Shown in pieces: positions 32,368 to 41,645 of a stretch of DNA of 64,000 bases. The stretch is from NCBI GenBank assembly GCA_963748825.1, contig CAVVKN010000023.1, positions 64,001 to 128,000 of the forward strand. The letters are read 5' to 3'. Position 1 is the stretch's first letter. Each line of letters begins with the position of its first letter. Made by a program: the position numbers and the translations under genes. The stretch comes from Methanotrichaceae archaeon (GTDB taxonomy: Archaea; Halobacteriota; Methanosarcinia; Methanotrichales; Methanotrichaceae). A model generated the notes under the pieces. That model saw only the letters and a program-made list of their open reading frames with translations. It was not told where the DNA came from and ran no database searches.

Positions 32368-32710
32368 TAAGGGAGATAAAGGTGCAGTCGGACCACGAGG
32401 ACCTAAGGGAGATAGAGGTGCAGTCGGACCACGAGGGGCAACTGGACCTAAGGGAGATAAGGGAGACACAGGTGAAGCAGGACCTAAGGGGGATACTGGA
32501 CCCAAGGGGGATAAGGGAGATGTTGGAACCAAGGCTGACTTGGATAATCTTACGGATTGGCTCGCCACAAATGTAACTTATATTGATCAGAATGCAACCG
32601 ACTTGGATAATGTTACCGCATGGCTTGATGCCAATGCAACCAAGGCGGACAATGCTCTATCCTGGCTCGCCTTGAATGTCACCAAAATAGGAGATCTTAA
32701 GGAAAGAGTT

Positions 32711-33340
32711 GATAATGTGTCTCCGAGAGTCGGTTATCTTGAGAGAGATCTATCCGCAAATGTTTCCGAAATAGGATATCTTAAGGATAGAGTAATTAAT
32801 AATATGTCTCCGAGAGTCGGTTATCTTGAGAGAGATCTATCCGCAAATGTTTCCGAAATAGGAGATCTTAAGGATAGGGTAATTGATAATGTGTCTCCGA
32901 GGGTCGGTTATCTTGAGAGAGATCTATCCGCAAATGTTACCAAAATAGGAGATCTTAAGGATAGGGTAATTGATAATGTGTCTCCGAGGGTCGGTTATCT
33001 TGAGAGAGATCTATCCGCAAATGTTACCAAAATAGGAGATCTTAAGGATAGAGTAATTGATAATGTGTCTCCGAGGGTCGGTTATCTTGAGAGAGATCTA
33101 TCCGCAAATGTTTCCGAAATAGGAGATCTTAAGGATAGAGTAATTGATAATGTGTCTCCGAGGGTCGGCTATCTTGAGAGAGATCTATCCGCAAATGTTA
33201 CCGAAATAGGAGATCTTAAGGATAGAGTAATTGATAATGTGTCTCCGAGGGTCGGTTATCTTGAGAGAGATCTATCCGCAAATGTTACCGAAATAGGAGA
33301 TCTTAAGGATAGAGTAATTGATAATGTGTCTCCGAGGGTC
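32711..33340 (+). repeat. 87-bp coding tandem repeat, 7 full copies plus partials
   Basis: Unit DNVSPRVGYLERDLSANV(S/T)(E/K)IGDLKDRVI starts at 32711, 32798, 32885, 32972, 33059, 33146, 33233 and 33320. Confidence 0.95.
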
Positions 33341-34132
33341 GATTACTCTTGAGACCAATCTGGATGCAAACGAAACACGAATCATCTCCCTAGAAGGCAA
33401 CGATACTGCTCAGGATTACTACGACATTACCATCCCGATGAATGCCAGCGGCGGGGATGCAAATGCCTACATCGCAGATGAGGATTGGCTAGTTACAAAG
33501 ATCCAGGAAGTTCATGTAGTACCTGGATCAGCGACTCTTACTGTCACCGTCAAGAAATGCACAGGTAGCAAGCACCGGATGCCGGCGCACCGATGCATAA
33601 TCCTGCCATCGCCCTCGATGGGCCGCCTGTACAGTTGTAGCTGCTGTACTATCATCTACATCTACAGACCTGACTCTTGCGGCAGGCGAACGGATAGCCT
33701 TGGATTATTCCGGCGATGCAACAGCGTTCTCCGGGGATCAATCACCATCAAGATGAAGACGGTTTAATCCCTCTTAATTTTATTATAATTACAACATAAT
33801 GACTGAGATCTATGCGTATATCCAGCCGCATGATGCCGATGATTGGATATCGGCCCATATAGTCTATCATACCGCGTGGGACACCGACGAAGCATTACAA
33901 TCCGCCTCACCAATCGAGGCAAGCGATCGCATAGATCTTGTCTCTGAAGGACTGCAAGGATGCAGACGATGCCACGCAGCCCCACGCGTTACCCCCGCTC
34001 CATGCTGATGCAGGGGAATGAGGGTCATGTCTCCCGTTCCGTAGGAAGCACCATTCACTGAGGCATATGGCTGGTAAAAACCACGAGCTATAATGTTACT
34101 ATTATTTCGTGAGGATCTTTAAAAAATAAATT

Positions 34133-34978
34133 TTATACCAGCGGCCGAGGCTGCTTCTTCTCCGGCAGAACGGGCAGAGGCATCGTGTTTATCAGAAGCG
34201 GCTGCTCTACCTCCTTGGCCCTCTCTACCAAGAGCTCCTTGCCCCAGCGGGTCAAACCGAAGAGCGGCACGGCGGTGCCCACCTGCACCAGAGGCTTTAC
34301 CTGCTCACGAATGTGCTTTGAGGCGCAGGCGGTAACAATATCGGCTACTGCCAAGAGCCTAGCCGCATCTTCCCGGCATAGGGCGGTGAGATGAACCCCT
34401 ACTATCATCATCCTGACACCTGCTGCTTTCTCCAGCTCTCGCAGCTTTTCCGCTGACGAGGCATCGGCAACTGTTACGGCAAATTTCTTGTATCCGGCCG
34501 CTGCGGCATAGGCCGCCCCTTCTATCTGGTCTATCTTGCCGTCCTGGGGCGAGAGCACATGCCCGTCCATGGCCCGGATGCCCTCGATAACCTCAGGTAT
34601 GGGATCAGTCTCGGTAAGTCCGGATATGTAGCCGCCCATGCCCTGAACCAGATCGGCATTGGCCGTTATCACTGTTCCCGCGCCATCGCAAACGGTAACT
34701 GCGGCATCGATAATTCCCGTCTTAATGCCGGTCATCATGGACTCAGAGGCCCCAAAGCCCACGAAGATGCCCATCTTAAGCTTGCGCCGCGCCGAGAACA
34801 TCCCGTGATTCTTTATCCTAAACTCCATGTTTGCGGCAGCCGATTCGGACGTAATTTTTTTTATGCCCCTAATCTTGTCGAAGAGAGGACACCACTCAAT
34901 CAAGGGCTCGCTCGCATCCAGCACCTTTTCGCCTTCCACTTTGACGCGAGATTTTCCCAATAGCTCCATTATGTGCAT
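34133..34978 (-). CDS. Methanogenesis marker 8 protein (DUF2099)
   Basis: HIMELLGKSRV, CPLF, FGASE, VCDGAGTV, VQGMGG. Confidence 0.85.
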   Translation of the reverse strand: MHIMELLGKSRVKVEGEKVLDASEPLIEWCPLFDKIRGIKKITSESAAANMEFRIKNHGMFSARRKLKMGIFVGFGASESMMTGIKTGIIDAAVTVCDGAGTVITANADLVQGMGGYISGLTETDPIPEVIEGIRAMDGHVLSPQDGKIDQIEGAAYAAAAGYKKFAVTVADASSAEKLRELEKAAGVRMMIVGVHLTALCREDAARLLAVADIVTACASKHIREQVKPLVQVGTAVPLFGLTRWGKELLVERAKEVEQPLLINTMPLPVLPEKKQPRPLV

Positions 34979-35680: not shown

Positions 35681-35824
35681 AAAAAGAAATGTAAAAGCTA
35701 CTCTCTCTTCAGCCTGGCGGGCGAAAAATATCATATAGATTAAAAAATAATTTATAAGACAGACATATTTTCGACCTCAATGGAATTATTTTCAACGAAA
35801 CTTATATATATGTTATCACTCGTT

Positions 35825-36220
35825 ATGCGCCTGGTGACCGCTTTGAATACAACAGCCGCCTCAGACCTGAAAGTCGAACGCGACGAATTTGCATCCATAC
35901 TCATGAAGGTAGGCCTGAAAAGGAACGTGGCCAAAGTTTTGACCTATCTGGCAGGGGTGGCAGAGGCAACATCCCGCGAGATAGAGATTGGATCGGATCT
36001 TCGCCAGCCGGAAGTGAGCATTGCCATGCGGGAGATTCGAAAACTGGACTGGATTGCAGAGAGGGACGAGAAAAATCCAGGAAAGGGACGACCGTATCGC
36101 ATCTACAAGTTAAATAGAAGCCTTCCTGAAATAGTCGATTACCTGGAAGGGGAGAAGTCAAAGGAATCCGAGAGGATGCTGAGACAGATTGAAAAGCTCA
36201 AATCCTTGAAGTCCAATTGA
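35825..36220 (+). CDS. ArsR/TrmB-like transcriptional regulator (COG4738-type)
   Basis: ATSREIEIGSDLRQPEVSIAM, GKGRPYRIYKL. Confidence 0.85.
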   Translation: MRLVTALNTTAASDLKVERDEFASILMKVGLKRNVAKVLTYLAGVAEATSREIEIGSDLRQPEVSIAMREIRKLDWIAERDEKNPGKGRPYRIYKLNRSLPEIVDYLEGEKSKESERMLRQIEKLKSLKSN

Positions 36221-36491: not shown

Positions 36492-37610
36492 ATGGAGATT
36501 AAGTACATCATCGACGAAGCCCTGGGCAGATCTGAGGCCGAGAGCAGGATCAAACCTTCCAGCATGATCCAGAGCGATGAAGAGCTGGTTTCGGTTTTAG
36601 AAGAGCTGACCACGGTTATCCGAGTCATAGGATGCGGTGGAGGCGGCTCAAATACCATAGACCGTTTGGCAGAGTGCGGCATCCAGGGTGCGGAGCTATT
36701 TGCCATCAATACCGATGCCCAGCATCTTTTGCATATCAACGCCGACCGGCGTTTTCTCATTGGCAGGCGCACCACACGTGGCCTGGGGGCAGGAAGCTTG
36801 CCCGCCATCGGGGAGGAGGCGGCTCAGGAGGATATCGATGAGATCAAAGCGTCCGTGGAAGGAGCTGATATGGTCTTCGTTACCTGTGGACTTGGCGGCG
36901 GCACAGGAACGGGAGCGTCTCCCGTAGTAGCGGAAGCCGCACGCGAGGCGGGGGCTCTCACCATTGCCATCGTCACCATCCCCTTCAGTGCGGAAGGCTC
37001 CATCAGAATGCAGAATGCCGAAGCCGGCCTGAAGAGGCTGCGAGAGGTTTCGGACACGGTAATAGTGGTGCCCAACGATCGGTTATTAGATGTAGTTCCC
37101 AACCTCCCCCTGCAGGCGGCATTCAAGGTAGCCGATGAGGTGCTGATGCGCTCCGTCAAGGGCATCACCGAGTTGATCACCCGACCCGGACTGATCAATC
37201 TGGACTTTGCCGATGTCAGAACGGTCATGACCAACGGCGGCGTGGCCATGATCGGCATGGGTGAGGCAGAAGGCGAGGAGAAGGCACGCGACTCCGTCAT
37301 GAAGGCTCTGCGCAGTCCCCTCCTGGATGTGGATGTATCGGGCGCAAACTCGGCTCTGGTAAATGTGGTGGGAGGGCCGGATATGACTATCACCGATGCC
37401 GAAACGGTGGTAGATGAGGTCTACCAGAAGATCAATCCTGATGCTCGCATAATCTGGGGCGCGCAGATAGACCCGAACCTTGAGCATACTCTGCGGACCA
37501 TGCTTGTGGTCACCGGTGTATCGTCCCCGCAAATACTGGGAAAGGACCTGAACCGACGTGTTACATCCCGTCACGGTATAGACTTCCTCCCTCGCCGGGC
37601 GCGCTACTGA
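36492..37610 (+). CDS. ftsZ: Cell division protein FtsZ (FtsZ1-like)
   Basis: [30 protein letters not shown]; FtsZ1-type N-terminal DEEL segment. Confidence 0.97.
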
Positions 37611-37716
37611 TCTCCATCCTTTCTTGTTTTTGATTATATGTGCTAACACGTACCATGTCAATCGATGGAATTATAAGGCCGCACCCGAATTAATACTATT
37701 GATCCCATGAGCGGAT

Positions 37717-38025
37717 GTGATAGTAATTCTGACCGAGAAGGTGAGCGGCGAGCTTGAGATGCTGCAACGGCACCTGGTCATCCTCAAGCAAGTGGTGGAG
37801 AATGAACCCATAGGCATCCTCAAGCTGGCGGAGGAGACAAAGATACCCAGCCACAAGGTACGATATTCCCTGCGGGTTTTAGAGCAGGAAGGATTAATCA
37901 AGGCTTCAGCCCCGGGAGCTGTGACCACGGAGGAAACCCAATCTTTTCTAAAAGAGCTGGACGGCATGATTGAGAATCTGGCCAAGCGGGCAGAGGATCT
38001 GAAGAAGATCAAGATAGCGAGGTAA
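37717..38025 (+). CDS. Winged-HTH transcriptional regulator (COG3388-like)
   Basis: EPIGILKLAEET, HKVRYSLRVLEQEGLI. Confidence 0.8.
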   Translation: MIVILTEKVSGELEMLQRHLVILKQVVENEPIGILKLAEETKIPSHKVRYSLRVLEQEGLIKASAPGAVTTEETQSFLKELDGMIENLAKRAEDLKKIKIAR

Positions 38026-39636
38026 ATGCGTTATTCTCGAATTGCCCAGGCCCTGCAAGAGATCTCCCAGGCCCCCCGAAGCCAAAAGGTCGATCTAACG
38101 GCGGGCCTTCTGGCAGAGATTGAGCCTACGCCAAAGATGCTCTGTCCAGCCGTGCGGCTGCTTTTAGGCGAGCTTTGGCCGCCCTGGGAAGGGAGGGAGA
38201 TGGGCATAGGTCCGGAAGCTCTCATGGCGGCCTTGGCGGAGGTATCTGATCAAGATCTTCCTTCTCTGCGGGAGAGATGCAGTGACATGGGGATGGTGGC
38301 TGAGGCGGCACTGGGGCAGAAAGGGCAGCATTCCCTTTTTCGCGAGCCTCTCGAAGCCTTATCGGTTTATGAAAGGCTCCGGCGCATCTCTACATTAAAT
38401 GGCAAGGAATCGGAACAACGCAAGAATGCTCTACTAAGGGGCCTATTTTTAGAAGCAACTCCCCTGGAGGGAAAGTACATCGCACGAACTGCGCTGCGAA
38501 ATATGCAGGCCGGCATCGGGCATAAGACCATGATTGCCGCGCTCTCTTCCTCACTGCACTGCGACCAGGAGAAAATTCGCCGTGCTTACAGCCTCATGCC
38601 GGACTTGGGCAGCATTGCCGCTCTGACGTGCAGCAGGGAGCTGGAGAGAGTTGCCATCCGGCCTAAAGTTCCCACCAGGTTCATGCTATTTCGCCGCAGC
38701 GATCCTAAGGCGCCGGGAGCTTTTCTGCCTAAATATCCAGGCTTGCGGGTGCAGGTTCATAAAATAGAAAACGAGGTTATTATCTTCACCTCGCAACTAC
38801 GAAATATCACCTTTGCCCTGAACGGCATATCCCGGATGCTTGGAGAAATAGATGCGGATTTTGTCGTGGATGCCGACCTCATAGGATTTCATGATAGCGG
38901 CAATAGGAGAAAAGAGATTTGCAGCCAGGCGGAAATGCTGAGGTACATCAATCGCCGTCGCCTCTCTCGCAAGAGCAACATTCACCCGGCCCTCCTGGCC
39001 TATGACCTCATCGCCCTGCAAGGAGAAGACATTTGCAGTATGCCCTATCAGGATCGGCGAAAGAGGCTTTTATCAATACTTGGCGAGCCCAAAGCCATGC
39101 CCTTTCAGGGAATATCTCCTGCCCAGGAAGACGTCCTTATGGATAGTGGCGAAGTTGATGAATTTCTCTGCCGGGCAGGGATTGCCGGAGCCAGGGCGTT
39201 GTTAGAGCGAGATCTTCAGGCCGCCTATCGTCCCGGCGAAGTCTCCGATCAGGATTTCATCATCAGAGCCGAGCATAATCTCGCCGCTCTGATTGTGCGG
39301 ATGTCGTGGGGCCGCGGCAAAGAAGAGAAGCATTCGGCAAGATATCAGGTAGCATTAAGGAGAGGCGAAGAGCTTGTGCCAGTAGGCTGGGCATGGCGCG
39401 GTCTTCTCGATAAAGATCAACAGGCTCTATCCCATAGCCTGAGATCCCTGGTAAGAGATGAGGATGAGAGTGGTGCCGATGTAAATGCGCAGGTTGTCCT
39501 GAACCTTAAGATCAGAGGAGCGCATAAAAATGGAGAGAAATACAGCATTCTTGAGCCGGTGATTGAAAGCGTTAGGCTCAATGCCTCCCCAGAGGATGCG
39601 GATGAGCTGGAGAGGCTGGAGAAGATCTGCCCCTGA
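38026..39636 (+). CDS. ATP-dependent DNA ligase homolog with degenerate catalytic motifs (probable pseudoenzyme)
   Basis: DBD (ATPLEGKYIAR), NTase and OB-fold order retained, but KYPGLR, VVDAD, RALLER, DFIIRA and SILEP replace the canonical motifs. Confidence 0.8.
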   Translation: MRYSRIAQALQEISQAPRSQKVDLTAGLLAEIEPTPKMLCPAVRLLLGELWPPWEGREMGIGPEALMAALAEVSDQDLPSLRERCSDMGMVAEAALGQKGQHSLFREPLEALSVYERLRRISTLNGKESEQRKNALLRGLFLEATPLEGKYIARTALRNMQAGIGHKTMIAALSSSLHCDQEKIRRAYSLMPDLGSIAALTCSRELERVAIRPKVPTRFMLFRRSDPKAPGAFLPKYPGLRVQVHKIENEVIIFTSQLRNITFALNGISRMLGEIDADFVVDADLIGFHDSGNRRKEICSQAEMLRYINRRRLSRKSNIHPALLAYDLIALQGEDICSMPYQDRRKRLLSILGEPKAMPFQGISPAQEDVLMDSGEVDEFLCRAGIAGARALLERDLQAAYRPGEVSDQDFIIRAEHNLAALIVRMSWGRGKEEKHSARYQVALRRGEELVPVGWAWRGLLDKDQQALSHSLRSLVRDEDESGADVNAQVVLNLKIRGAHKNGEKYSILEPVIESVRLNASPEDADELERLEKICP

Positions 39637-40523
39637 TGATCCTCAGATCCTTTGACCCCTGGAAGAGCCAGCTGTGCACCTGTCCGGCCAAGATGAGCCT
39701 GAATCCCTACACAGGATGCCCGCATGGCTGCCTTTACTGCTACGCCTCATCCTACATCCCCCGCTTTGCAGAATGCCGCCCCAAGGTTGATCTCCTAAAA
39801 CGCCTGGCCAGAGAGTCGTCCAAGATCAGGCCCGGCACCCTGGTGGCATTGTCCAATAGCTCCGATCCCTATCCCCCCATGGAAAAGGATCTGAGGCTCA
39901 GCCGGGGCTGTTTGCAGATCTTAAAAGCACGGGGTCTTCGTGTCCAGGTGGTGACCAAGTCGCATCTGGTGGCCCAGGATGCAGAGCTATTGGCCGAAAT
40001 GTTGGCCTGCGTGGCCATAACCGTCACTACGCTGCAGGACTCAATTTGCCGCAGGCTGGAGCCGGGAGCGCCATTGCCGGCAAAACGCCTTGATGCCATG
40101 GCGAAGCTGGCGGAAAGGGGTGTTGCCGTCTCGGCCAGAATCGATCCCATAATTCCCGGCATAAACGATGCAGAGATCGAACAATTGGCGGCTGCCGTCT
40201 CACGGGCCGGAGCCGGGCACATAACCTCATCCACTTATAAGGCCCGTCCGGGAAATATGAATAAGATCATCTCTGCCTTTCCGCAAGAGGGCGCAGCTTT
40301 AAAGAGCCTGTTTGCAAGAGGCGACAAGGTTGCAGGAAGCTGCTATCTTCCGGCAGATACTAGATGCGATCTGATGCAAAGGGTAAAAGAGAGTGCACAG
40401 CAAGAGAGAGTGACGTTCTCCTCTTGCCGGGAAGGATGGGCAAGAGTTCCGGGAATAAACTGCGATGGGTCGCATTTATTGTCCCCGATTAGCAGTATTG
40501 AACATAATTCCGGAGATAGATGA
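39636..40523 (+). CDS. Radical SAM protein, spore-photoproduct-lyase-like family (COG1533)
   Basis: LNPYTGCPHGCLYCYA, SDPYPPME, VVTKS, RLEPGAP, RIDPIIPGIND; TGATG overlap with the upstream gene. Confidence 0.88.
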   Translation: MILRSFDPWKSQLCTCPAKMSLNPYTGCPHGCLYCYASSYIPRFAECRPKVDLLKRLARESSKIRPGTLVALSNSSDPYPPMEKDLRLSRGCLQILKARGLRVQVVTKSHLVAQDAELLAEMLACVAITVTTLQDSICRRLEPGAPLPAKRLDAMAKLAERGVAVSARIDPIIPGINDAEIEQLAAAVSRAGAGHITSSTYKARPGNMNKIISAFPQEGAALKSLFARGDKVAGSCYLPADTRCDLMQRVKESAQQERVTFSSCREGWARVPGINCDGSHLLSPISSIEHNSGDR

Positions 40524-40772: not shown

Positions 40773-41645
40773 ATGAGGAAAATTATGGCTATCACTGTGG
40801 CCCTCATGATAGCAGCCATTATTTTAATGCCTGCTTTGGGGTACACTAATCAAGCTGCCGGAAATCAGTCTTACACTGTAAAATCAGGAGATAGAGTCGG
40901 CTACAGCGTCACAACAAATGTTCCCGCCCATAACCTGACTCCGGATATGATGGCAAACAAGTATTCTCTCAAGTCCGCCGGTATTCAGAGTACCAGGATG
41001 CCCTACTCGTTTAAGCAGGGAACCGCCACACCCTACTCCGTTAAGCTGGAAGGTGTCAAGAATGCTGCTCCACTGGGCATGAAAACCAAGCCGGTCGCAA
41101 AACTGGGAAGCATGATGGATGCAGCTCTGCCCGTGGCTGCTCCTGTGGTTGAGCCTGTAGCCACTCCTGTGGTTGAGACCGTAGCTGCGCCAATGAATGA
41201 GACCGTAGCTACTCCTGTGGTTGAGACCGTGGCCGCTCCTGTGGTTGAGACCGTAGCTGCGCCAATGAATGAGACCGTAGCTACTCCTGTGGTTGAGACC
41301 GAAGCTGAGCCAATGAATGAGACCGTGGCCGCTCCTGTGGTTGAGACCATGGCTGCACCAATGAATGAGACCAAATTCACGATCGAAGGAATTGTCACCG
41401 ATATCAATCAAACCGGCCTTGCTGGCTGGACCATGAATCTGACAATGGATGGAGCAGTTATCAATAGTGTTGCAACAGCCGCTGACGGCAAGTTTGCCTT
41501 CGCAGACCTGGCTGCTGGTGAATACAATGTTTCCGAGGTCCTCATGGAGGGCTGGAGCATAATCTCCCCCGCTGAGGGCAAGTCCGTTGTAACCATCACC
41601 AATGCCAGTGTTACCGACCTGGTATTCGTCAATCAACTCGGGTAG
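40773..41645 (+). CDS. Secreted protein with Pro/Val/Thr repeat linker and C-terminal SdrD-B/CnaB-like domain
   Basis: Signal peptide; GLAGWTMNL...TAADGKFAFADLAAGEYNVSE; GAGGT RBS upstream; downstream T-tract. Confidence 0.75.
   Translation: MRKIMAITVALMIAAIILMPALGYTNQAAGNQSYTVKSGDRVGYSVTTNVPAHNLTPDMMANKYSLKSAGIQSTRMPYSFKQGTATPYSVKLEGVKNAAPLGMKTKPVAKLGSMMDAALPVAAPVVEPVATPVVETVAAPMNETVATPVVETVAAPVVETVAAPMNETVATPVVETEAEPMNETVAAPVVETMAAPMNETKFTIEGIVTDINQTGLAGWTMNLTMDGAVINSVATAADGKFAFADLAAGEYNVSEVLMEGWSIISPAEGKSVVTITNASVTDLVFVNQLG
41142..41372 (+). repeat. 24-bp coding tandem repeat (PVVETVAA/PMNETVAT), about 9.6 units
   Basis: Alternating CCTGTGGTTGAGACCGTA and CCAATGAATGAGACCGTA units. Confidence 0.9.

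Follow-up and report, generated by a model that had tools for sequence, protein, structure and literature searches.

An eroded DNA ligase paralog retained across the archaeal family Methanotrichaceae and usually coupled to a radical SAM gene

What is left for a DNA ligase to do once its catalytic motifs have been replaced? The question is raised by three open reading frames (ORFs) that lie head to tail on the + strand of a 64,000-nucleotide (nt) stretch of a Methanotrichaceae archaeon genome (GenBank assembly GCA_963748825.1, contig CAVVKN010000023.1, positions 64,001 to 128,000). This whole stretch is called the window here, and coordinates refer to it unless another locus is named. The three ORFs encode a small winged helix-turn-helix (wHTH) protein, a ligase homolog that we term pLig, and a radical S-adenosylmethionine (SAM) protein. 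A first-pass annotation, made from the letters alone, had proposed that they form a dedicated DNA repair module. Our analysis shows that pLig keeps the fold of a ligase and not its chemistry, and that it is an old, family-wide protein. On a slender balance of probability, its sequence suggests a noncatalytic, DNA-binding and possibly PCNA-binding ligase paralog, co-expressed with the wHTH protein and usually coupled to the radical SAM gene. The genes and the parts of pLig are as follows.

37717..38025, + strand: wHTH gene, 102 amino acids (aa) as the longest ORF, first in the operon (ORF list, Pfam)
38026..39636, + strand: pLig gene, 536 aa, eroded ligase paralog (ORF list, Pfam, AlphaFold2)
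38026..38670, + strand: DNA-binding domain (DBD) of pLig, residues 1-215 (Pfam, 114.9 bits)
38671..39273, + strand: nucleotidyltransferase (NTase)-like domain of pLig, residues 216-416, with motifs I to V eroded (Pfam, 42.8 bits)
38731..38748, + strand: motif I relic KYPGLR, residues 236-241 (alignment to the canonical ligase and 44 orthologs)
39274..39636, + strand: oligonucleotide-binding (OB)-like domain of pLig, residues 417-536, with the stop codon (beta-rich in the AlphaFold2 model)
39636..40523, + strand: radical SAM gene, 295 aa, of the COG1533/PA0069/Rv2578c kind (ORF list, Pfam, NCBIfam)

A ligase fold without ligase chemistry

The three-domain architecture of ATP-dependent DNA ligases (DBD, NTase, OB), which the first-pass annotation had assigned to pLig over its full length, is borne out by its predicted structure. 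Pfam recognizes two of the domains, DNA_ligase_A_N (PF04675, 114.9 bits) and DNA_ligase_A_M (PF01068, 42.8 bits), both above the Pfam cut-offs; the OB-domain family DNA_ligase_A_C (PF04679) was not detected in the Pfam scan. The AlphaFold2 model (mean predicted local distance difference test [pLDDT] score, 90.6) has the complete three-domain ligase fold. Its top Foldseek matches, all full-length, are the ligases of Thermococcus, Pyrococcus and Archaeoglobus and human Lig1, and pLig aligns end to end with the solved Thermococcus and Pyrococcus ligases (E = 5e-52). At the level of sequence, pLig falls below the cut-off of all 12 NCBIfam ligase models (e.g., 155.5 bits versus 830 for LigA_Halo, NF041331, and 115.5 versus 217.8 for TIGR00574). 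The divergence is distributed unevenly among the domains: the DBD scores 114.9 bits in Pfam where that of the genome's canonical ligase scores 139.1 (83% kept), and the NTase domain scores 42.8 bits where its canonical counterpart scores 200.2 (21% kept).

All six catalytic motifs are altered relative to this canonical ligase, exactly as the first-pass annotation had listed them. Motif I changes from KYDGAR to KYPGLR, motif Ia from FSRR to FTSQ, motif III from LDGE to VDAD, motif IV from EGLILK to RALLER, motif V from WLKIK to FIIRA, and motif VI from LRFPR to ILEPV. The same annotation had held that only the lysine and arginine of motif I and the aspartate of motif IIIa remain; these three (K236, R241 and D327) are indeed kept, but so are Y237, Y326 and, conservatively, R395 at the position of the motif IV lysine. 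Among 44 aligned orthologs, the motif I lysine position is occupied by lysine in 23, arginine in 15, valine in 3, leucine in 2 and tryptophan in 1, and the motif I aspartate (position 238) occurs in none. Motif III reads DAD, EGE or some other variant, motif V is variable and has lost its lysines, and R241, D327 and R395 persist in 41 to 44 of the 44. With the motif I lysine in only 23 and the aspartate in 0 of the 44, pLig is to be regarded as a pseudoenzyme, and it is predicted to be unable to seal DNA.

The nucleotide pocket has been remodelled as well. Ten AMP-contacting residues are listed for the Thermococcus gammatolerans ligase (PMC13136779), and we mapped these onto pLig through the structural-chain alignment under an assumed numbering offset of +10. 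Six of the ten contacts are kept or conservatively replaced (K236, Y237, R241, E to D284, F to Y326 and K to R395), three are lost (E to L234, R to S256 and E to R390), and one is replaced nonconservatively (I to P235).

Nor is pLig the only ligase in its genome. The 2.88-Mb assembly, which is 94.9% complete, contains three PF01068 matches: pLig, a canonical ligase of 559 aa in which KYDGAR, DGE, EGLILK, WLKIK and RFPR are all intact, and a LigD-like ligase of 312 aa, also with intact motifs, that adjoins a Ku gene (PF02735, 129 bits). Canonical ligases from relatives retain motifs I, III, IV and V in 20 of 20 cases and RFPR in 19, the 20th ending at a contig edge. The motifs being intact in these proteins, the erosion is specific to the pLig paralog and not due to chance.

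Two observations on other ligases belong beside these. The Ku and LigD-like genes form a nonhomologous end-joining-type pair in a methanogen, located outside the window (genome G000, contig C1, locus L002:1138-3277). In a sister family, second ligase matches were found in four genomes (G026, G028, G037 and G038) and were considered as further dead ligases. This was rejected, both of those fetched (G026 and G038) being intact ligases of ~570 aa with the motif EEKYDGER, whose genes overlap by 4 nt with a PolX gene (PHP domain; L134:2902-6329 and L133:2980-6404, respectively). The ligase-PolX pair of the sister family is a repair operon.

Retention, distribution and loss of the OB domain

Substitution patterns show that pLig is under purifying selection, at about half the stringency applied to the canonical ligase. 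The ratio of nonsynonymous to synonymous substitutions (dN/dS), calculated by the pairwise NG86 method for pairs with dS of 0.05 to 1.5, is 0.23 for pLig as a whole and not close to 1; the corresponding values are 0.13 for the canonical ligase, 0.20 for the radical SAM gene, 0.10 for the wHTH gene and 0.03 for FtsZ. By domain, the pLig values are 0.21 (DBD), 0.24 (NTase) and 0.40 (OB), as opposed to 0.15, 0.13 and 0.10 in the canonical ligase. In the genus that we label g12, which lacks the radical SAM gene, the pLig ratio is 0.29 (105 pairs). Over 190 genome pairs, the pLig protein changes at ~1.9 times the rate of the canonical ligase.

The reading frame has likewise been maintained. None of the 55 loci examined (40 from the genus of the window and 15 from other genera; two run off contig ends) shows a disruption of the DBD or NTase part, and every one has more than 400 open codons, at identities as low as 31%; within g12 alone, these parts are open in all 15 copies. 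Apparent internal stops in the matches from three genomes (G014, G018 and G019) proved to be the natural stops of OB-less genes through which the alignment had been read, and those in three g12 matches are probably a natural stop near codon 420, with the high-scoring segment pair running to 430. The proposal that pLig is a retained pseudoenzyme is thus well supported by the separate canonical ligase, the low dN/dS, the undisrupted DBD and NTase parts and a trio that is syntenic across the family, and its retention has been long.

Conservation is concentrated in the DBD. The 44 orthologs share 26 invariant and 44 nearly invariant positions, of which 20 and 29, respectively (49 of 70), fall in the DBD, a domain that accounts for 52% of the retained length. 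The selected core of pLig consists of the DBD and the remodelled NTase domain.

The OB domain, in contrast to this core, is dispensable in the pLig family. It is wholly or mostly missing from 19 of the 44 aligned orthologs, most of which stop directly after the motif V relic ('DFIIR*'), and Pfam detects DNA_ligase_A_C in only 1 of the 44. When OB states are placed on a tree of residues 1-416, parsimony requires 12 changes, at least 8 of which are forced by well-supported branches; since regaining a ligase OB domain is implausible, these changes represent independent losses. Repeated loss of the domain needed for encirclement, together with its elevated dN/dS, argues against the nick- or lesion-encircling clamp that the first-pass annotation had envisaged, and pLig is presumably unable to encircle DNA.

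Matches at the level of pLig (E value no higher than 1e-49, identity of 33% or more) occur in 92 of 104 other Methanotrichaceae genomes. These comprise 55 of 58 further genomes of the same genus, the three without a match being 56, 80 and 88% complete, and 37 of 46 genomes from 15 other genera. Only one genus lacks pLig: it was found in none of seven g10 genomes that are 91 to 99% complete. An initial search, in which 22 of 24 genomes of the genus had a match, had suggested a genus-specific gene, a possibility ruled out by the family-wide search. Beyond the family, 16 genomes of two other families yielded matches at the canonical level only (24 to 30% identity).

A search of 1.84 billion representative proteins gave the same picture. 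Matches from the family have 33 to 72% identity and 168 to 616 bits, with eroded motifs wherever these were checked. Full-length matches from elsewhere reach at most 187 bits, and 26 of 26 that were fetched are canonical ligases with KxDGxR; the other three proteins fetched have eroded motifs, and two of them resemble distant members of the pLig family. Close homologs carry the source names Methanothrix or Methanotrichaceae and are annotated as 'ATP-dependent DNA ligase', 'DNA ligase', 'DNA ligase 1' or 'hypothetical'. In a quick tree, all pLig sequences fall into a single long-stemmed clade (SH-aLRT, 100) that is not sister to the family's canonical ligase; given long-branch effects, neither the donor nor the date of the duplication is read from this tree. 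pLig is old and family-wide and not specific to one genus.

One metagenomic protein of 426 aa (P0203) stands apart. It has DBD and NTase Pfam matches without an OB domain, reads R-F-G-G-V-Y in place of K-x-D-G-x-R at motif I, and is 30% identical to pLig; it could be either a remote member of the pLig family or a ligase that lost its activity independently.

Gene neighbours and their coupling to pLig

Direct reading of the gene junctions confirms the tight coupling that had been described for the trio. The stop codon of the wHTH gene (TAA, 38023-38025) directly abuts the pLig start (ATG, 38026), and the pLig stop (TGA, 39634-39636) shares one A with the start of the radical SAM gene (ATG, 39636-39638) in the string TGATG. 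Gene order is conserved as wHTH-pLig-radical SAM in 12 of 16 genera. The gap between the wHTH and pLig genes is 0 nt in 40 of 54 loci. Among the 47 loci having both pLig and the radical SAM gene, the two overlap by 1 to 4 nt in 33 and by 10 to 20 nt in 6, and are separated by 0 to 8 nt in 3 and by 70 to 141 nt in 5. The tight pLig/radical SAM junction persists in lineages with independent deletions of the OB domain. Such junctions point to selection for co-expression, and hence to a functional link between the two proteins that is probable, to judge from gene arrangement, but facultative.

The features flanking the trio are as follows.

36492-37610, + strand: ftsZ, upstream neighbour (TIGR00065, 447.7 bits)
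37611..37716, + strand: AT-rich spacer of 106 nt between ftsZ and the wHTH gene (read from the sequence)
40773-41645, + strand: secreted-protein gene downstream of the radical SAM gene (ORF list, Pfam)

The spacer is the sole noncoding gap in the row from ftsZ to the radical SAM gene and is the likely place of a putative archaeal promoter for the three-gene unit; the promoter scan applied to it covers only the bacterial sigma-70 consensus, and the host is an archaeon. Contigs from RNA libraries of two studies, X1 (37028-38673) and X2 (36660-38566), are ~97% identical to the window, and each runs from the 3' part of ftsZ across the wHTH gene into pLig, of which it covers the first 540 to 650 nt. 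The remainder of pLig and the radical SAM gene are partly covered by other contigs (38738-39546, 39671-40025 and 40245-40483). Contigs of this kind prove neither a single transcript nor the absence of DNA; in two other runs (X3 and X4), no contigs cover most of pLig and the radical SAM gene, which is not readable as absence. Taken with the junctions, pLig is presumably co-transcribed with the gene for the small wHTH protein.

That protein, which the first-pass annotation had cast as a dedicated regulator of the module, has a much wider distribution than pLig. It matches the Pfam families CggR_N (33.3 bits) and HTH_24 (25 bits), and a protein atlas groups it with small winged-helix proteins described as 'uncharacterized, conserved in archaea'. 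Its true start is probably not the annotated GTG at 37717 but a codon further into the frame (GTG 37741 or ATG 37759): in one ortholog codon 3 is a stop, and two others begin at codon 9, equivalent to the GTG at 37741. Orthologs were found in 49 of 49 Methanotrichaceae genomes and in 48 of 51 genomes of four other families (45 of 45, 1 of 1 and 2 of 2 in three of these, labelled f3, f4 and f5, and 0 of 3 in the fourth, f2), where no pLig occurs in the 16 genomes searched. Outside the Methanotrichaceae, its neighbours are genes for an FAA hydrolase and GluRS, or for archease and RtcB. A gene that is class-wide, present without pLig and flanked elsewhere by unrelated genes is not a module-dedicated regulator; the wHTH gene is a housekeeping-type archaeal gene with pLig behind it. 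A search with PADLOC for known defence systems returned weak partial matches only (the wHTH protein to Csa3/CARF tails and the radical SAM N terminus to DUF1848) and gave no indication of such a system.

The third gene encodes an apparently intact enzyme. Its product matches the Pfam family Radical_SAM (PF04055, 60.8 bits), and its best NCBIfam matches are the PA0069 family (NF033668, 137.6 bits versus a cut-off of 360) and the Rv2578c family (NF038135, 92.8 bits versus 430). Their E values of 5e-40 and 2e-26 indicate a relationship to these families despite the subthreshold scores. The sequence link to spore photoproduct lyase (SPL; TIGR04070) is faint (20.8 bits versus a cut-off of 400). The cluster-binding motif is conserved in 30 of 30 orthologs:

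39717..39740, + strand: CPHGCLYC, the CxxxCxxC motif (C28, C32 and C35), with flanking tyrosines Y34 and Y36

Both tyrosines and five other cysteines (C14, C16, C92, C264 and C276) are also invariant. The tyrosines of CLYCY, beside the third cysteine, agree with what we take to be a feature of SPL; the titles of PDB entries 4fhg and 4k9r place the catalytic Cys/Tyr relay of SPL at C140 and Y98. On the structural side, the radical SAM model (pLDDT, 83.5) has SPL (4fhc) as its top VIA-align match among 48,161 chains (Z = 16.0; root mean square deviation, 3.3; 235 residues), with PFL-activating enzyme (Z = 14.8) and lipoyl synthase (14.7) close behind, and SPL gives the best coverage in Foldseek (TM score, 0.58 to 0.60). 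A profile search against solved structures, with E values up to 10, retrieved no SPL chain and only a 60-residue stretch of NifB (E = 0.009). According to PMC8565304, COG1533 SplB genes are SOS-regulated in several bacteria.

The first-pass annotation had treated the ligase-like and radical SAM proteins as an obligate pair, and their distribution contradicts this. Radical SAM orthologs (52 to 89% identity) occur in 12 of the sampled genera, g10 among them, and the g28 locus has one as well. Genera g12, g16 and g20 have only distant radical SAM matches or none, and their loci read wHTH-pLig-secreted protein; in g10, conversely, the radical SAM and secreted-protein genes lie together elsewhere in the genome, and a ThiI gene follows ftsZ-wHTH. 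Even within the genus of the window, where the state of the gene was scored over 40 loci, it is intact and adjacent to pLig in 28, interrupted by an in-frame stop in 1 (G021), frameshifted in 2 (G009 and G163), reduced to a 24-residue remnant in 1 (G001), missing from the locus in 1 (G016), intact but displaced by 4 kb through the insertion of two TPR genes in 1 (G020) and undecidable at contig ends in 6; some of the breaks could be assembly errors. The 28 include G008, whose apparent stop is the natural end of an intact gene. Search-table stop flags also fall on the radical SAM matches of G005, G023, G052 and G130. Predictions of a pLig-radical SAM complex scored 0.00 in both runs and, the controls not having folded, are no evidence either way.

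Several features of the surroundings deserve mention in their own right. At the G020 locus (L101:5752-9379), the TPR-repeat genes (405 and 777 aa) separate an OB-less pLig from the radical SAM gene and break the usual overlap. The product of 40773-41645 has a signal-peptide-like sequence, ETVAAP/ETVATP tandem repeats and an SdrD-B/prealbumin-like domain, and in most loci of the family its gene comes after the radical SAM gene, or after pLig where the former was lost. In four RNA libraries, the contigs that cover it exceed all others in word depth by a wide margin; depths differ among genes in these data and are not readable as expression level. Just upstream of ftsZ lies a gene for an MreA-family transcription regulator (35780-36220, + strand; 141 bits, cut-off 100), with methanogenesis marker 8 beside it (34133-34978, - strand). 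An ORF of 270 aa (32540-33352, + strand) contains about seven near-identical 27-residue repeats (…DNVSPRVGYLERDLSANV[ST]EIGDLKDRVI…) and has weak, coiled-coil-like Pfam matches only.

Weighing the readings

If pLig no longer seals DNA, conservation suggests where it might still act. Its ligase DBD would recognize duplex or nicked DNA without catalysis, and a second contact is suggested by one loop of this domain:

38320..38340, + strand: loop K99-G-Q-H-S-L-F105 of pLig, aligned with 'rrqksff' of 9dfa

Its counterpart in the Thermococcales ligases is the PCNA-binding loop QKSFF, and among the 44 orthologs Q101 and L/I104 are conserved in all, K/R99 in 41 and F105 in 18. PMC13136779 reports that the Pyrococcus ligase touches PCNA with the QKSFF motif of its DBD and with its adenylation domain, but not with its OB domain. 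The counterparts of these two PCNA-contacting domains are the ones that no pLig has lost, and pLig may dock on PCNA through its K-x-Q-x-x-L loop and NTase domain. In most genera, moreover, its translation is probably coupled to that of an intact, SPL-like radical SAM enzyme, which it may bring to DNA, with neither protein depending on the other.

The noncatalytic, DNA-binding paralog with a facultative radical SAM partner is the reading that we hold, narrowly, to be probable, and several points weigh against it. Binding to DNA and to PCNA is deduced from conservation. Only 18 of the 44 orthologs have the aromatic residue of the loop, and the conserved glutamine and leucine could be structural. 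With K236, Y237, R241, Y326 and R395 present in the pLig of the window, some nucleotide binding is possible. Constraint is modest, dN/dS being about twice that of the canonical ligase, and the ratios are pairwise values from related genomes whose pairs are not independent. Many of the sampled genomes are draft assemblies, and the absence of pLig from g10 makes it dispensable there.

The dedicated repair module of the first-pass annotation, in which a dead-ligase clamp recruits the radical SAM enzyme and the wHTH protein regulates both, draws on real regularities: the gene order shared by 12 of 16 genera, the overlaps of 1 to 4 nt that stay tight after OB deletion, a radical SAM fold nearest to SPL, and the reported SOS regulation of bacterial COG1533 genes. 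It is nevertheless unlikely in view of an OB domain lost at least eight times, a pLig that selection maintains in g12, g16 and g20 although the radical SAM gene is missing there, a radical SAM gene without pLig in g10, the broken (three loci), deleted or absent (two) and displaced (one) radical SAM genes within the genus, and a wHTH gene that is class-wide and has other neighbours elsewhere. A more far-reaching proposal, in which the dead ligase would be the DNA- and PCNA-targeting subunit of a hitherto undescribed radical-based lesion repair in strictly anaerobic methanogens, strikes us as improbable, if a shade less so. pLig would wait on nicked or damaged DNA at the sliding clamp, leave it unsealed and hand the site to the SPL-like enzyme, whose substrate would not be spore photoproduct, and lineages from which one partner has gone would have rewired the pathway. 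Since the host is strictly anaerobic and does not sporulate, spore photoproduct is an unlikely substrate of the radical SAM protein.

Two further readings, each of which we consider doubtful, move the function of pLig elsewhere. The remodelled NTase pocket could bind a nucleotide, sense a ligand or perform new chemistry, as might be expected from the six AMP contacts kept or conservatively replaced, the near-universal R241, D327 and R395 and an NTase dN/dS of 0.24; what speaks against such activity is a lysine nucleophile present in barely half of the orthologs, the absence of the motif I aspartate and the motif V lysines, the loss of three AMP contacts and nonconservative replacement of a fourth, and the fact that the DBD, not the pocket, is the most conserved part. 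Alternatively, pLig could serve the wHTH protein as a second DNA-binding surface or as a damage input to a transcription or chromatin factor, with the radical SAM enzyme as a passenger. pLig always lies directly behind the highly conserved wHTH gene (dN/dS, 0.10), usually with no gap, and stays there in g12, g16 and g20, which have lost the radical SAM gene; against this, g10 and three other families have the wHTH gene but no pLig, and the adjacency may reflect hitchhiking on a well-expressed promoter. We disfavour as very improbable the view that pLig is a functionless duplicate in slow decay. Its ~1.9-fold faster protein evolution, its repeated OB losses and its absence from g10 could be taken as signs of decay, but this view is opposed by reading frames that stay open for more than 400 codons at every one of the 55 loci, even at 31% identity, by dN/dS values of 0.21 to 0.29, and by 70 invariant or nearly invariant positions over 44 orthologs.

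Whatever the role of pLig, its ligase labels credit a whole archaeal family, to which major acetate-consuming methanogens belong, with an extra ligase that is almost certainly unable to ligate. A replicative-type ligase turned pseudoenzyme and kept through the history of a family would be a rare noncatalytic member of the nucleotidyltransferase superfamily. As a natural separation-of-function variant, with DBD and NTase domains devoid of chemistry and an OB domain present or absent, it is useful for studying ligase scaffolds at nicks and on PCNA, and because it is often coupled to an SPL-like radical SAM enzyme, it also offers a concrete way into the COG1533 proteins, a widespread group that, to our knowledge, is not characterized. 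We found no published account of a dead archaeal ligase or of this gene pair in the literature searched, which excluded subscription journals.

Among known systems, pLig most resembles the archaeal Lig1-type replicative ligases (PDB 9dfa, 2cfm, 3rr5 and 3gde), with which it shares the DBD-NTase-OB fold and order, similarity over the full length and a well-kept DBD that includes the loop binding PCNA in Pyrococcus. It differs from them in the alteration of all six motifs, the unconserved lysine, the optional OB domain, scores below every NCBIfam ligase cut-off, faster evolution and its position beside a true ligase. The radical SAM neighbour resembles SPL and the COG1533 proteins (SplB-like; PA0069 and Rv2578c) in its CxxxCxxC motif and best NCBIfam matches, with SPL (4fhc) as the nearest match of its predicted fold, and differs from them in falling below the curated cut-offs and in its five further invariant cysteines. 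With pseudoenzymes such as pseudokinases, pLig has in common a retained fold, lost catalytic residues and purifying selection beside an active paralog. In the Ku-LigD pair of this genome and the ligase-PolX pair of the sister family, a ligase homolog is likewise coupled to another repair gene; those ligases keep KxDGxR and their other motifs, whereas pLig is dead and has a radical SAM gene as its neighbour.

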